8,155 bases of DNA, from positions 1 to 8,155 of the forward strand of contig NW_021828518.1 in NCBI RefSeq assembly GCF_006345805.1, read 5' to 3'. The DNA is from Octopus sinensis. Taxonomy: Eukaryota. The position numbers were made by a program, and so were the translations under genes. Each line of letters begins with the position of its first letter. Within the stretch, counting starts at the first letter, position 1. Positions 1 to 8,155 of the stretch are shown piece by piece. The notes under the pieces were generated by a model. That model was not told the DNA's origin. It made no database searches and saw only the letters and a program-made list of their open reading frames with translations.

Positions 1-255
1 ACAATTAAATATAAACTATAAAATATAAAATATAAAACAAAACAAAAAAATAATAATAATATAATAATAAACTATATATACACCCCTACACATATACCTA
101 ATTATATATAACCATATCTAACTACATACACTAAATCACACACCTATATATATCCCTATACATACACATATAAAACGTCTAGGCAACTATTAATAAATAA
201 AATAGCTAAATATTCAACACAATACTTATTCATACTCCCACACACACACACATAC
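1..255. repeat. Low-complexity A/T/C-rich tract (AAT, TA, CA runs; almost no G)
   Basis: Runs such as aaatataaaatataaaacaaaac, (aat)n and (ca)n, with only a handful of G. Confidence 0.7.
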
Positions 256-266
256 AACCACATTCA

Positions 267-1026
267 CGCTCTAGAAAACGGACATCACTCAAAACTATGA
301 ACAGAGAAATGGAATAAATGGAATTAAAAATTATATTCACTTGGTAAAACGAAACACTACTTAAAAATTATGAATGGAAACAATGCAATAAAACAACATA
401 CATCGCAAATAGACACAAATTACTACGAATTCCTTAACAAACCTATCATGATAAACAAAAACTCATAAAAACATATAATGATAAAATCTCCCTTTACTAA
501 ACTCTATAACAAACCTATTAGCAATCCCCCTAACCTAAACATTCACACACAAATACACACGTAAACAACACACACGACATATACAAATACCCACACCACT
601 TACACATACCAATACATACATATAAACCTCAACATATACTCCAAAAACCCACTCAACCCCACACAGACAAATAAACACAAAATTATGAATGGATTCTTTT
701 ATAAAACTACCATGATAAGCTAAAACTCACAAAAAACAGAAATGATAAAACCTCCCTTTACTAAACACTATAACATACTTATATAGCAATCCCTATAACC
801 TATACATTCACACACAAAACACACACGTAAACCACACACCCATAACAAATACAAACACCCACCCCACTCACACACACACCCACAAGTACAATAAGCCTCA
901 ACATATACACCAAACAAAATTACTTTACCAAGGAACTTAACATATGTATAAAAAGTATAACCGCTCTGGAAACGAACATCTCTAAATTAATGAATGGAGA
1001 AATGGAATAAATGGAATTAAAAATAA
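267..1026 (+). repeat. Older diverged and rearranged copies of the upstream repeat family
   Basis: 267-~680 aligns with 962-~1345 (cgctctagaaaacggacatc vs cgctctggaaacgaacatc, offset ~695). ~680-910 is a further partial copy. ~915-1065 resembles ~1718-1878. The core gagaaatggaataaatggaa and variants occur at 304, 997, 1801 and 2822. Confidence 0.85.
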
Positions 1027-2044
1027 TATTCACGTGGCAAAACGAACACCACTCAAAAATTATGAATGAAACAATGTAATAAAACAACCAACATCGAAAA
1101 TAGACAAATTACCACGAATTCCCTAAAAAAAACCATGATAAACCAAAACTCTTAAAACACATATAACGATAAAATCTCCCTTTGCTAAACTCTATAACAA
1201 ACCTATATAAAATCCCCCTAACCTAAACATTCACACACAAATACACACACGTAAACCACAGACCCACGACTTATACACATACCTATACTAACTATAAACC
1301 TCAATATACACCAAAACCCACTCACTCCCAACACAGACAAATTAACACATACATCCCAAAACCTAAATAACAAACCCATATACACATTCACACACAAACA
1401 CACCACACACAGCAAAACACACACACACAATGGATACATATACTCCCTCACATATACGCATATACATACTCACTAAACTCGATATATACAACAATATTTA
1501 CACACCCACACTCATACAGATAAATAAATTATACAACTAAAAACTCACACACAAACTCATATACATAAACACTCCTATGAAAACAACATTAAATACATCG
1601 TAATTAACCAGAATATCAAAAATAACAATATGACATAAGGATAAATAAAATACATACTTACAAGTCAGTTTCAAATTATGAAGTGAAATTAAATTCTTAG
1701 CCGTTAAAAAAATCAAACCAAAATTACGTTACCATAGAAATAACTTATGTAAAAAAAGAATACGCGCCATGGAAAGTAAACGTCATTTAAATTATGAATG
1801 GAGAAAAAGAATAAATGGAACTAAAAACTATATCCACGTGGCAAACCAACACTACTTAAAAAAATTTATTATGAATGGATTCTTAAAAAACTACCATGAA
1901 AAATCATTATATACATTTATGAGCTTTAGCTCACCTTAGCAGCTCTAACAAACAACTTGCAGTAACCCAAACCCATTCTCTATGCCTACCTCACTACTAC
2001 ACTATTCCATTCACAATTCCAAGCAACGCTAGTCCACCACCGGT
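1027..2044 (+). repeat. ~1.02 kb tandem duplication, copy 1
   Basis: Begins tattcacgtggcaaaacgaacaccactcaaaaattatgaatg and ends gctagtccaccaccggt; colinear with 2045-3069. Confidence 0.95.
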
Positions 2045-3069
2045 TATTCACGTGGCAAAACGAACACCACTCAAAAATTATGAATGAAACAATGTCATAA
2101 AACAACCAACATCGAAAATAGACAAATTACCACGAATTCCCTAAAAAAACCATGATAAACCAAAACTCATAAAAACATATAATGATAAAAACTCCCTTTG
2201 CTAAACTCTATAACAAACCTATATAGCAATCCCCCTAACCTAACATTCACACACAAATACACACACGTAAACCACAGACCACGACTTATACACATACCTA
2301 TACTAACTTATAAACCTCAATATACACCAAAACCCACTCCCTCCCCACACAGACAAATTAACACATACATCCCAAAACCTAAATAACAAACCCCTATACA
2401 ACATTCACACACAAACACACACACCACGCAAAACACACACACAAAACAGATACATATACTCCCTCACATATACGCATATACCTACTCACTAAACTCGATT
2501 ATACAACAATATTAACACACCCACACTCATACAGATAAATAAATTATACAACTAAAAACTCACACACAATCTCATATACATAAACATCATATGAAAACAA
2601 CATTAAATACATCGTAATTAACCAGAATATCAAAAATAACAATATGATATAAGGATAAATAAAATACTACTTACAAGTCAGTTTCAAATTATGAAGTGAA
2701 ATTAATTCTTAGCCGTTAAAAAAACCAAACCAAAATTACGTTACCATAGAAATAACTTATGAAAAAAAAAAAAAAAAGAGAATACGCGCCATAGAAAGTA
2801 AACGTCATTAAATTATGAATGGAGAAATAGAATAAATGGAACTAAAAACTATATCCACGTAGCAAACCAACACTACTTAAAAAAATTTATTATGAATGGA
2901 TTCTTTAAAAAACTACCATGAAAAATAATTATATACATTTATGAGCTTTAGCTCACCTTAGCAGCTCTAACAAACAACTTGCAGTAACCCCAAACCTATT
3001 CTCGATGCCTACCTCACTACCACACTAATCCATTCACAATTCCAAGCAACGCTAGTCCACCACCCGGTT
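2045..3069 (+). repeat. ~1.02 kb tandem duplication, copy 2
   Basis: Same start (offset 1018) and end (gctagtccaccacccggtt) as copy 1. Differences are scattered substitutions and homopolymer indels, e.g. the long A run at 2762-2777. Confidence 0.95.
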
Positions 3070-3178
3070 ACAATTCCCAACTCCACCCATTCATTCACAA
3101 TTTCAACGACATTCGCCTCCACAGCGCTACATATAAGCCTCAACATATACACCGGAGATACACTACACATCCGTGCGG

Positions 3179-3667
3179 ATGGGTGAGAGTATACATTGAG
3201 TGTAGTGATGGGGCTCCCATTACTATACACATTTGTACCTGTGTGGTAGTCTCCATGTGTATATTCACGCACGGTATAAATGAGGGGGTACACGCGCACG
3301 TCATTTGCGTGTACCCCCTCACATGTACATATGCATGCTATTGGGGCTCGATATATGCAACAATGTAATCGCGCCCGCATACATGCATATGGGCGAATTG
3401 CACAATCAAAAAACGCACATGTGTGTGTGTGCGTTCCTGGTTGTGCAATTCACCCATCTGGGTGTGAGTGGGTGTAAGCGTATCGCTGTGGATGTCGAGC
3501 TTGATACGTATGTATATGAGTGTGTATTAGGGGGTTGTACGTATTAATTGTGTGCATGTGCTTCACGCACTTGCGTCCATGTATGGATGAATATATTGGG
3601 ATTACTATGTGGGTGTAAATGGGATGGAGGGGGAGTTTGTCATTGTATGGGTGTGGGTTTCATTTGT
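3179..3667 (+). repeat. Long imperfect inverted repeat (~490 nt, centre ~3423), G-U-rich hairpin on + strand; candidate hairpin RNA or structured DNA element
   Basis: Pairings on one anti-diagonal (coordinate sum ~6846-6851): aacgcaca 3412-3419 / tgtgcgtt 3428-3435; gaattgcacaa 3395-3405 / ttgtgcaattc 3441-3451; gctcga ~3346 / tcgagc ~3495; ccccct 3314-3319 / aggggg ~3529-3534; 3230-3251 / 3600-3621 (14 Watson-Crick + 8 G-U); 3179-3188 / 3658-3667. Confidence 0.85.
3281..3321. other. Perfect 15-bp GC-rich stem-loop (11-nt loop)
   Basis: tgagggggtacacgc (3281-3295) is the exact reverse complement of gcgtgtaccccctca (3307-3321); loop gcacgtcattt. Confidence 0.9.
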
Positions 3668-3690
3668 GATGGTGGTTAGTTGGTGATTTT

Positions 3691-3824
3691 TAGTATATAT
3701 ATGTATTGTTATATTAGATATATATATATATATGTATATGTATGATATAATATAGTATATGTATATGTATATGTCTATATATATATGTATAGTATATATA
3801 TGTAATATATATATATGGTATATG

Positions 3825-3855
<31 letters not shown>

Positions 3856-3987
3856 GTATATGTATATATATATATAGTATATATATATGTATATGTGTTA
3901 TATATATATGTATATATATAATGTATATATATATGTATATGTGTATATATATATGTATATATATGTATATATGTATAATGTATATGT

Positions 3988-4022
<35 letters not shown>

Positions 4023-4128
4023 GTATATGTATATATATATGTATATATATGTATATATATGTATATATATATATAGTATATGTATATATATGTATATATA
4101 TAGTATATATGAGTATATATATATATGT

Positions 4129-4159
<31 letters not shown>

Positions 4160-4250
4160 GTATATATATTATATGTATATAATTATATATATATGTATAT
4201 ATATATATGTATATGTATATTATGTATGTATATATATATATATGTATATG

Positions 4251-4296
<46 letters not shown>

Positions 4297-4470
4297 ATTA
4301 TATGTATAAATATGTATATATATATATGTATATATATATATAGTATAATATATGTATATATATATGTATATATATATATGTAGATATATATATATGTATA
4401 TATATATGTATATATATATATATGTATATATATATGTATATATGTATATATATTATGTATATGTATTATA

Positions 4471-4507
<37 letters not shown>

Positions 4508-4517
4508 GTATATATAT

Positions 4518-4549
<32 letters not shown>
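3691..4549. repeat. Degenerate (TA)n/(TATG) microsatellite tract 1 (~860 bp)
   Basis: Continuous TA repeats interrupted almost only by G. Confidence 0.97.
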
Positions 4550-4551
<2 letters not shown>

Positions 4552-5027
4552 AAACATTATTGGTGAATTGAAGAAATGGAGCTGAACGCAGATTGAACAG
4601 AAATCGTTTTATTTCATTCTACACGTGTTTCGAAAGGCACAAATTACCAAAATCCGATTGAATAATGGGACCATATTGTGTCTTTCTCTTCAGGAAGAAA
4701 AAAGGAAATCCGTTGGAAAAACAAAAACAGAACAGAGGCGGAGCAAAAAACAAATCGAACTGTGCTCCTAAGAGCCCATGGCGAAACTCAGTTTCGCCAT
4801 GGGCTCTTAGGAGCACAGTTCGATTTGTTTTTTGCTCCGCCTCTGTTCTGTTTTTGTTTTTCCAACGGATTTCCTTTTTTCTTCCTGAAGAGAAAGACAC
4901 AATATGTCCCATTATTCAATCGGATTTTGGTAATTTGTGCCTTTCGAAACACGTGTAGAATGAAATTAAACGATTTCTGTTCAATCTGCGTTCAGCTCCA
5001 TTTCTTCAATTCACCAATAATGTTTTA
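4550..5027. repeat. Near-perfect 478-bp palindrome (arms 239/238 bp, 1-nt centre at 4789); possible foldback/MITE-like element
   Basis: Centre catggcgaaact-c-agtttcgccatg; ends taaaacattattggtg and caccaataatgtttta. By eye only one substitution (~4610) and one 1-nt indel (~4671) separate the arms. Confidence 0.95.
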
Positions 5028-5173
5028 ATTTCAATTATCCGCACCAACGCACGGTTGCAACGCCAGATGGTTGTACCTCCAACCGTGCTGTTTACTGCTG
5101 TGATTTTGCTACTAAGGTATCGGTTAAAACTTTTGATTAATCTACTACAAGATTATTCATCTTTCTATTTCAC

Positions 5174-5246
5174 ATAATATATATAATATGTATTATATAT
5201 ATATATATATTATATATCTATTATATGTATATGTATTATATATATG

Positions 5247-5280
<34 letters not shown>

Positions 5281-5319
5281 ATATATATATATTAGATATG
5301 TATATATATATATGTATAT

Positions 5320-5351
<32 letters not shown>

Positions 5352-5515
5352 GTATAGATATATTTATATGTATATATATATGTATATGTATTATCTAATA
5401 TAGTATGCATATATATAATGTATATATATGTATATATATATATATGTATATATATTATATATGTATATGTGTATATGTATGTATATTATATATATATATA
5501 TATATGTATTATATG

Positions 5516-5548
<33 letters not shown>

Positions 5549-5582
5549 GTATATATATATAGTATATGTATATGTATAGTGG

Positions 5583-5617
<35 letters not shown>

Positions 5618-5710
5618 GATATATATATATATATATGTTATATATATATATATATATCTATGTATATATATATTATGTATATGTATATATATATATGTAT
5701 ATATGTATAT
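5174..5710. repeat. Degenerate (TA)n/(TATG) microsatellite tract 2
   Basis: TA repeats with G interruptions. Confidence 0.97.
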
Positions 5711-5920
5711 GATCGCCATGTTGATTCGTTAGCTACTGCACGCATTTTTTTTCTCTCCTTCTTTCTGTGTTTTTCTCTCTCTGGTATCTTTCTGTTGAAG
5801 AGCGTAGGCTCGAAACGTTAAAGACTTGTTTTACTTATTTCCTGAGCGCCAATACTAATACAATTGTTCGTTTGTTTTCCACCTGCCTTCGTCTTTTGTT
5901 TATTTTCATAAAGCTTCCGT

Positions 5921-5939
5921 TATATATATGTATATGTAT

Positions 5940-5990
<51 letters not shown>

Positions 5991-6117
5991 GTAGTATATA
6001 TTTATATATATATGTATATATTATATATATATATATAATATATATATATATATATGTATAATTTATATATATGTATATATTATATATATATGTATATATA
6101 TATATATATATGTATAT

Positions 6118-6151
<34 letters not shown>

Positions 6152-6199
6152 TGTATGTATATATATAATATATGTATGTATATATATATATATATGTAT

Positions 6200-6241
<42 letters not shown>

Positions 6242-6384
6242 GTATGTATGTGTATATATATATATGTATGGTGTATATATATATATATGTATGTATATAT
6301 ATATATATATGTATGTAATATATATATAAATGTATTGTATATATATATATATTATATATGTATGTATATATATATATATGTACG

Positions 6385-6419
<35 letters not shown>

Positions 6420-6587
6420 GTATGTATGTATATATATTTATATATGTATGTATATATATATATCTATGTATGTATATAATATATATCTATGTATGTATAT
6501 ATATATATATGTATATATATGTATATATGTATATATATGTATATATGTCTATATATGTATATATGTATATGTATGATATATATATAT
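5921..6587. repeat. Degenerate (TA)n/(TATG) microsatellite tract 3
   Basis: TA repeats with G interruptions; TATG units become more frequent toward the 3' end. Confidence 0.97.
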
Positions 6588-6636: not shown

Positions 6637-6995
6637 AGTTTGCATAGATCGGCGAAAAACCCCTGTAGTTGCAAAACGTTAAAACTCTAAGTCATAGAGA
6701 TCACTACAAAACACTTTGGTTAAAAATATTTTAAAATATATATATAATATATATACATATACACAGTAATTTTCATTTTCGCCGAAACGCACATGGTGCC
6801 AAAAATAAAGAATCAAGTTATCTCCTGCAAGAAAGAAAAAAGAAGCATCTCTCCTGAAAAAAAATCCCGTAAACCAAAAAAATAATCCAGACCACATTGT
6901 TGGATTAAGTATCAATTTCATCTATTTCATATTTTGTTTATTATTCTATTTTATCCTCACGTAGGCCCACATATTAGTTAAAGTTGCGATCGCCA

Positions 6996-8155
6996 TTTTG
7001 TTGTTTACATTCAATATCTGTTCTCGATATAATCATTTTTCAGAACTCTATATTCTAATTAGCCCTAAGATTAAATTAAATAACGTTTAATATTACCCAC
7101 ACTCTAATATAATTTTGTTTGTTACATTTTCAATATCTGTCTCGATATAATAATTTTTCAGATACTCTATCTTCTAATTAGCCTTAAGATAAATTAAATA
7201 ACGTTTTATTGATGAACGTATAATAGCCTTAGGATTTTAAATTAAATAACGTTTAATATTGTTTTATATTGTTAATAATATTGTTAATTAGCCTTAAGAT
7301 AAATTAAATACGTTTAATATTGTTTAATATTGTTAATAGTTTTTCAGATACTCTATCTTCTATTAGCCTTAAGATTAATTAAATAACGTTTAATATTACC
7401 CACACTCTAAATAATTTTCAATATCTGTTCTTGATATAATAATTTTTCAGATATCTATCTTCTAATAGCCTTAAGATTAAATTAAATAACGTTTAATATT
7501 AATAACGTTAATTAGCCTTAGGATTAAATTAAATAACGTTTAATATTGTTTAATATTGTTAATATATGTTAATTAGCCTAAGATTAAATAATTAAATCGT
7601 TTAATATTGTTTAATATTGTTAATAATTTTTCAGATACTCTCTATTCTTATTAGCCTAAGATTAAATTAAATAACGTTTAATATACCCACACTCTAATAT
7701 AATATTAATATTGCTAATATATCATTTTTCAGATACTCTATCTTCTTAATTAGCCTTAAGATTAATTAAATAACGTTTATATAATAAACGTCTAATTAGC
7801 CTTAAGATTAAATTAAATAACGTTTAATATTGCCTTAATATTGTTAATATTTTTTCAATACTCTGTCTTCTAATTAGCCTTAAGATTAAATTAAATAACG
7901 GTTAATATTACCCACACTCTAATATAATATATATATGCTAATATTTTCAGATACTCTATCTCCAAATTAGCCTATTAGATTAAGATTAAATAATTTACCC
8001 ACACTCTAATATAATATTAATATTGCTAATATATTTTCAGATACTCTATCTCCAAATTAGCCTTAAGATTAAACAACGTTTTTACCACACTCTAATATAA
8101 TATTAATATTGCTAATACATTTTCAGATACTCTATCCCCTTACTTAGCCTTAAGA
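6996..8155 (+). repeat. Modular AT-rich satellite/minisatellite, 15 core copies, truncated by the window end
   Basis: Core ~aattagccttaagattaaattaaataacgtttaatatt, with tagcc at 7060, 7179, 7224, 7289, 7364, 7466, 7513, 7574, 7652, 7751, 7797, 7875, 7968, 8058 and 8145. Interleaved with reused modules tttttcagatactctatcttct, acccacactctaatataat and ttcaatatctgttctcgatataat. Confidence 0.95.

Follow-up and report, generated by a model that had tools for sequence, protein, structure and literature searches.

Why should the arms of a long hairpin be held together so largely by G-U pairs, and on one strand only? The question is raised by an 8155-bp stretch of Octopus sinensis DNA (the window), which is an entire contig of a 2.7-Gb genome. 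A sequence-only reading of this stretch had found such a hairpin and had offered two explanations for it: a + strand hairpin RNA under selection for pairing, or an old inverted duplication in which both arms accumulated A>G and C>T changes on the + strand. Based on comparison with related copies elsewhere in the genome, the pattern is very probably the product of ADAR hyper-editing of a retroelement's RNA, written into germline DNA by retrotransposition, and this twice, on opposite strands.

For the geometry of the hairpin, a direction-neutral alignment was used, in which the arms pair on the + strand as 3143-3419 and 3428-3702. Of its 264 columns, 165 are identical, 66 are of G-U type, 16 of A-C type and 17 are transversions, so that the G-U excess claimed earlier is real; a recount gave 67:17 (p = 3.5e-8). 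The stretch that had been offered as an example (3230-3251 against the reverse complement of 3600-3621) has exactly 8 differences, all G/A or T/C, and all 8 trace to A>G when read against a hairpin-less relative. The left arm (L, 3131-3420, + strand) is a fold-back copy of the right arm, is missing from older relatives, and carries a first round of A>G changes. The right arm (R, 3427-3702, + strand; 71% G+T) is an original tail repeat of the host element and carries both the first round, as A>G on the + strand, and a second round, as T>C on the + strand. The fold-back point is a central stem and loop (3389-3459) that pairs on both strands. Inside L, a perfect local stem (3281-3321, both strands) competes with the long duplex and appears in the centroid and in the - strand fold.

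Folding on both strands upheld the proposed structure in part. The + strand reaches -236 kcal/mol (z -7.8) with 0 of 100 shuffles as good, but the - strand, at -171 kcal/mol, does equally well against its own shuffles (z -8.1) by way of local stems. Its arm-to-arm pair probability is ~0 except in the central ~60 nt. The long duplex is strand-specific; the z-score is not. On the + strand itself, 3140-3199 is unpaired in register and 3260-3319 is mainly taken up by a local stem. The asymmetry recurs when the left arm is compared with its own upstream direct-repeat paralogs, with which no pairing is possible (54:6, 54:8, 47:1 and 47:3), and therefore on its own it is no proof of selection for pairing.

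On the minus strand, positions 1-3706 are the 3' tail of a 5'-truncated retroelement, by its motifs probably a Penelope-like element (PLE) of the Hydra clade, at 95-97% identity to copies on several chromosomes. The contig begins just inside the pLTR side of the element; the ORF for reverse transcriptase (RT) and GIY-YIG endonuclease and the hammerhead-bearing pLTR were located in other copies, in window-minus sense. Because the element's gene reads on the minus strand, the + strand hairpin is today antisense to the element. The tail opens with internal repeats that are G/U-rich in sense (U repeats, 1-2924, minus strand), which hold most of a ~1017-nt tandem duplication (1027-2046 and 2045-3070), are the predicted partner of an inverted block, and carry second-round sense A>G. 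The left end of that block (X, 2925-3130, minus strand), with the left inversion junction at ~2925, was U-rich in sense before the flip and A-rich after it, and was then hyper-mutated A>G (T>C on the + strand). Beyond the hairpin, at 3703-3706 (minus strand), this copy is truncated at its 5' end and abuts a (TA)n microsatellite; the inverted block of fuller copies continues for another ~200 nt, to the right junction. Among 460 candidates, at least 40 scored copies of the region have 95-98% identity. A degenerate central-stem pattern gave 308 arm matches (reversed control, 0), corresponding to ~150 hairpin-bearing copies.

Fuller copies form a 7.3-7.5-kb unit (tandem units of ~7.3 and 7.45 kb) that occurs in tandem and inverted within (TA)n, and the element's ends abut (TA)n. 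Open frames of 349 aa (N-terminal) and 598 aa, with YRDD and YIGS, were recovered from natural copies, and homologs of the ORF are ~620-800 aa long and 30-44% identical; Octopus bimaculoides is the source of the one protein match that carries a species name. A Pfam scan and a PDB sequence search of the ORF pieces gave nothing significant, so the RT and GIY-YIG assignment rests on motifs, in the order RT and then C-terminal endonuclease. DKG is modified to DKT (SDKTR), the N-terminal motif is RIKWK (RMRWK or RIRWK in homologs; the clade motif is RWK), the CxCX5C linker reads CTCRDKSNC, CYLC (CxxC) and CRH (CxH) are present, there is no CCHH, and the GIY-YIG core has, by inspection, one Cys inside. 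A putative type I hammerhead, by its core (CTGAAGA...GAAAC), lies on the sense strand of each pLTR; an Rfam scan of the element loci left this core unscored. Together these motifs point to the Hydra clade, agreement with reference proteins being judged by eye. The clade described by Craig et al. 2021 (PMC8557442) likewise has a C-terminal GIY-YIG after the RT, DKT, CxCX5C, CxxC and CxH without CCHH, a type I hammerhead core, (TA)n targets, and tandem and inverted truncated copies. The elements listed there are 1.1-3.0 kb long and include Hydra-1_Obim (2507 bp), whereas the octopus unit of ~7.3-7.5 kb has a ~4.5-kb repeated tail and KWK for RWK. Its length of ~7.3-7.45 kb is outside the Hydra tendency of <3 kb, which is a tendency and not a strict criterion. 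The word "hairpin" is absent from the main text of that paper. Membership of Naiad/Chlamys PLEs, which have an N-terminal endonuclease, DKA and no canonical hammerhead, was rejected, since here the endonuclease is C-terminal, the motif is DKT and the hammerhead core is present. Selenoprotein recoding was set aside because the open stretches in natural copies need no TGA, as was the idea, suggested by composition only, that the A/C-rich repeats are mitochondrial or telomeric, because they map to the element's tail.

Protein searches returned no near-identical relative of the element protein in another species. Other Hydra-like families in the genome (20 loci) have no comparable tail, with ~0.6-2.6 kb shared past the ORF end. 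At least nine such families (L051-L100) are present, at ~35-80% aa identity to one another, from 59 loci scored among 28,996 first-look candidates; many have long open frames, and the published list holds one octopus Hydra family (PMC8557442). In the ORF of the element studied here, RT and endonuclease are separated by a long Asn-rich insert. Five copies (L037-L041, G000:C8:53.46-53.50 Mb) are clustered head-to-tail and head-to-head. Between subfamilies (L035, L047, L151), sense A>T exceeds T>A, by 8 to 2 and 9 to 3 in the ORF and 7 to 1 in the UTR.

The rest of the window holds further repeats. At 4550-5180 a second Hydra-like family is represented by its 3' end, which bears an inverted terminal repeat: a near-perfect 478-bp palindrome (arms 4550-4788 and 4790-5027) with an extension. 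Each arm has a hammerhead core with a long stem II; the tail of L089 matches this region at 98% identity, and at least 40 copies are found at 99% identity or above. A short dispersed repeat between (TA)n tracts (5705-5925) has a counterpart in L171 at 97% identity and others at several loci at 77-88%, and 6995-8155 is an AT-rich satellite with nested periods of ~61, 86, 118, 224 and 287 nt. The (TA)n microsatellites at 3707-4549, 5180-5710 and 5920-6587, which served as insertion targets, are interrupted by G at regular intervals, exclusively on the + strand (GC skew ~+1).

Eighty loci were surveyed, and the block was found in 78 rows, representing 75 distinct loci. In three distinct copies (L107, L128/L151 and L129/L153), referred to here as unflipped, a block of ~1 kb, from ~2925 of the window to ~200 nt beyond 3706, is oppositely oriented, and the hairpin lies on the sense strand. 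When an unflipped-specific segment was used as the query, 3 of 40 scored matches were at 96-100% identity and 37 at 77-89%. Of these 37, 20 were retrieved and 19 tested (L190 was excluded as rearranged). Arm L was absent from the same strand in 19 of 19, and only its template was there. Ancestral states were taken from these hairpin-less relatives and not from the window's own repeats, which are G-saturated and misleading.

For the order of events, a tree was built from 1494 columns of the ORF end and proximal UTR, outside the block, with 43 of 50 loci (7 lacked a 600-nt match); its midpoint root fell among the more diverged hairpin-less copies. Hairpin-less copies are followed by unflipped copies, early flipped copies and younger subfamilies including the window's, with support of 100/100 and 100/93 at the key nodes, the unflipped state being represented by three copies only in an assembly with many indel errors. 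A topology placing the youngest flipped copies beside the hairpin-less group was rejected on constraint. Tail inversion is recurrent in the family: a separate local re-inversion is seen in L102, and this locus, L133, L138 and L146 represent further independent tail inversions or rearrangements, each of them a possible additional test of strand-switching editing.

The first round of change is recorded in the unflipped copies. The arms of L151 form 123 Watson-Crick, 86 G-T, 0 A-C and 13 other pairs, and 81 of the 86 wobbles trace to A>G. At the G(L)-U(R) sites, hairpin-less L171 has T in 55 of 55, meaning that L changed A>G; at the U(L)-G(R) sites it has A in 26 of 31, meaning that R changed A>G, and the other 5 are C>U in L. 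Six other hairpin-less relatives gave 51-55 and 20-26 in the same two classes. A>G accounts for 39 of the 52 differences between R of the unflipped copy and L171, and for 64 of the 74 between L and the reverse complement of L171 (57-68 in two other scorings), against 6 C>T in L. Across both arms, 103 of 181 A sites (~57%) changed A>G. By bin, the R arm stands at 37/72 and the ORF at 0-2 per 104-154 A sites, and at synonymous third positions of the ORF the change is seen at 1/139 and 0/140. A>G is also raised outside the arms of the unflipped copy, at 14/66 beside R and 21/83 in one downstream bin. The 5' neighbour of the changed site follows a clear preference (U 56/89, A 27/37, C 15/40, G 5/15; U+A versus C+G, p = 3e-4), with no G depletion in the R arm alone (5'-G 5/10). 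Of the 67 G-U pairs that can be traced in the window copy, 58 derive from this first round. An inverted duplication with strand-specific transitions in both arms, as had been suggested, stands in outline and in its A>G component; C>T contributed little.

After the inversion, the same bias appears on the new sense strand. From the unflipped to the window-type block, changes on the + strand are T>C 89/409, A>G 0/177, G>A 44/291 and C>T 2/109, with 29 transversions; read on the new sense strand, these are A>G 89, U>C 0, C>U 44/291 and G>A 2/109, with A>U 16 and C>A 8. R has acquired 19 T>C and 11 G>A on the + strand since the flip. Control regions gave A>G at 0/906 in the ORF and 0/104 in the proximal UTR. 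In the tail repeats that are the predicted partners of the flipped block, 71 of 643 A sites show A>G in sense and 18 of 597 G sites show G>A, relative to the unflipped copy. In X, 52 of 107 T sites changed to C on the + strand, with 9 other changes, and 35 T>C belong to a branch whose length in the ORF tree is 0.003 changes per site. The 7 early flipped copies carry 35-52 T>C apiece in X versus 1-4 other changes; among them, 52 T>C sites are variable versus 7 others, and they are partly copy-specific. Later subfamilies added few T>C in X. The variant spectra of the 30 closest copies show no clear bias, as would follow if editing had already faded in that subfamily. Because the A>G bias switches DNA strand together with the RNA strand, the inversion acts as a natural control.

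Second-round A>G also depends on its surroundings. By 5' neighbour, changes are seen at U 30/84, A 40/136, C 17/143 and G 2/27 (U+A versus C+G, p = 9e-7). Depletion of 5'-G taken by itself is borderline in each round (p = 0.06), and the 3' neighbour differs from one round to the other (G 10/13 in round one, 1/17 in round two). Within the hairpin, A facing C changed at 18/84 sites and A facing U at 4/60 (p = 0.018); a preference for A-C mismatches is a trait of ADAR. Several pairs of the central stem passed from A-U through G-U to G-C across the two rounds, and of the 19 window pairs that join G in L to C in R, 12 began as A-U, the hairpin-less relative having T there.

The history that we propose begins with older relatives, which have a G/U-rich tail without an inverted repeat. 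A ~290-nt inverted copy of the tail repeat was then gained, perhaps by template switching, and would have formed a duplex in the sense RNA. In both arms, roughly every second adenosine was replaced by G, presumably through ADAR, whose inosines the element's RT would have copied as G, so that I-U pairs became genomic G-T. The ~1-kb block with the hairpin was next inverted, possibly by a template switch again, which left the wobble hairpin antisense. In the new sense RNA, pairing is predicted between the flipped, A-rich block and the tail repeats; a second A>G burst followed, probably by the same enzyme, and would have faded as the duplex was consumed. It is the mutation spectrum that points to ADAR: A>G is confined to the arms, X and the partner repeats, all predicted duplexes, apart from the two raised bins outside the arms. 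The genome has 17 matches to ADAR-family domains.

A different agent acting on the same fold-back and inversion history, with A>G made in paired segments by RT or polymerase wobble errors, another deaminase or mismatch repair in a cDNA hairpin, is improbable. In its favour, and against ADAR, is the strand-biased sense class of C>U, A>U and C>A, which ADAR cannot make and which is independent of the pairing partner. Shared changes in hairpin-less tails are C>T 9/160 versus A>G 5/615; the C>U bias is thus found there too, and other asymmetric mutagenesis, perhaps enzyme error or cytidine deamination, has acted in this lineage, probably accounting for the U-rich tail. This background spectrum, however, has no A>G excess. 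If G-T were repaired in a cDNA hairpin of the + strand, T>C opposite G would likewise be expected after the flip (the 18/84 above), but such repair fails for round one, in which A>G breaks Watson-Crick pairs, and for the burst in X. ADAR prefers 5' neighbours in the order U>A>C>G, and both rounds fit this order. That the pattern is an artefact, either of G/T-rich composition that wobble-pairs anyway or of long-read errors and misjoins, is scarcely credible and largely refuted: the G+T content of the right arm, the equal z-scores of the two strands, a short contig and copies with indel errors would allow it, yet the stem recurs in the ~150 copies on many chromosomes, and the changes are shared by subfamilies and follow an independent tree. 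Moreover, the opposite-strand joint at the right inversion junction is present in contigs of 2 of 4 independent runs, and the unflipped right boundary is bridged by contigs of 2 runs.

A selected hairpin RNA, in which the antisense transcript folds and is diced to small RNAs, with wobble-compatible changes alone tolerated, is very unlikely. The long duplex does form on the + strand only, it is still stable (-243 kcal/mol, z -8.8 against 12 shuffles, in a window-type copy), and inter-arm transversions are few (17/264). Purifying selection, however, cannot lift change at A sites to 103/181 against 1/139 at synonymous ORF sites, and C>T, equally tolerable, is nevertheless rare in L (6 versus 64 A>G). 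The + strand is now antisense to the element, and its pairing has decayed since the flip: along the ladder of copies, G-T pairs on the + strand number 86, 79-81, 65-67, 58-68, 55 and 52, A-C mismatches 0, 2-3, 7-10, 15, 16 and 22, and the folding energy goes from -306 to -219 kcal/mol. G>A since the flip strikes Watson-Crick pairs, which it breaks (8/57), and wobble pairs, which it keeps (12/82), alike, and only one Watson-Crick pair changed to another; selection for pairing thus finds no support. Gene conversion to paralog letters as the cause of G>A is disfavoured by the same indifference to the partner. The miRNA or hpRNA reading fared no better, since an Rfam scan of the window and four element loci had no match at gathering score, the 7 weak miRNA-model matches on the window reaching at best 31 bits against 100. 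Over the same ladder, sense-strand folding of the flipped block grows stronger (-110 to -177), and the local stem at 3281-3321 reaches perfect pairing. As for the + strand hairpin, it is likely a decaying scar without present function.

Arguments over feedback of RNA editing into inherited DNA usually lack a clean case; here the ancestral, intermediate and descendant states are all preserved in a single assembly. The ~100 edits amount to a dated genomic record, with a two-step route from A-U through G-U to G-C. The signature, G-T far in excess of A-C when the inverted repeats within an element are read on its sense strand, lends itself to scans of any genome, and it carries a warning: a strand-specific, G-U-rich hairpin need not imply selection on RNA structure. 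Tentatively, ADAR may act as a recurrent germline mutagen whose edits are inherited until the element's dsRNA dissolves, so that pre-edited subfamilies would evade dsRNA surveillance; the inversion, which turns a sense G-U hairpin into A-C mismatches, might be favoured in this way (3 unflipped versus ~150 flipped copies), and write-back might account more generally for G-U-rich hairpins, and for repeat tails with strand skew, in animals that edit heavily.

G-U pairs abound in the hpRNA endo-siRNA loci of Drosophila and in the miRNA foldbacks of plants. The octopus hairpin resembles them as a long, imperfect, strand-specific hairpin with many such pairs; unlike them, it lies inside a mobile element, antisense to its gene, and is decaying without pair-preserving selection. 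In a literature search that covered few subscription journals, no report was found of ADAR edits fixed along an endogenous retrotransposon lineage or of hairpins in Penelope-like tails, and the accessible text of a paper on Octopus vulgaris repeats mentions neither Hydra nor hairpins. The closest precedent for the extent of change is in avian retroviruses, in which nearly half of the adenosines of an inverted-repeat region became G (Hajjar and Linial 1995; Felder 1994; per the review PMC12925331), an A-to-G change that the review attributes to ADAR acting before reverse transcription. Those were single isolates, whereas the changes here are fixed in an endogenous germline lineage and inherited by ~150 copies, and the element was changed twice, on opposite strands, the inversion serving as an internal control.

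DNA editing of endogenous retroelements by APOBEC3 is known, and re-integration of edited elements has been called rare (PMC2873906). As in those elements, the marks of a host deaminase would here persist in genomic copies as clusters of a single mismatch type; APOBEC3, however, leaves sense G>A by way of C>U in cDNA, whereas the octopus element has sense A>G in duplex segments and sense G>A at only 2/109. ADAR hyper-editing of inverted or palindromic repeat RNA has been described for a frog Harbinger element, a lizard Penelope element and octopus, which ranks with the strongest hyper-editors, and the edited sites show upstream depletion of G (PMC5625713), as is also reported for ADAR sites in PMC2873906. 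The element described here shares the substrate type and the upstream-neighbour bias with those cases, but in them the edits are in transcripts only, whereas here the pattern stands in the element's genome sequence.
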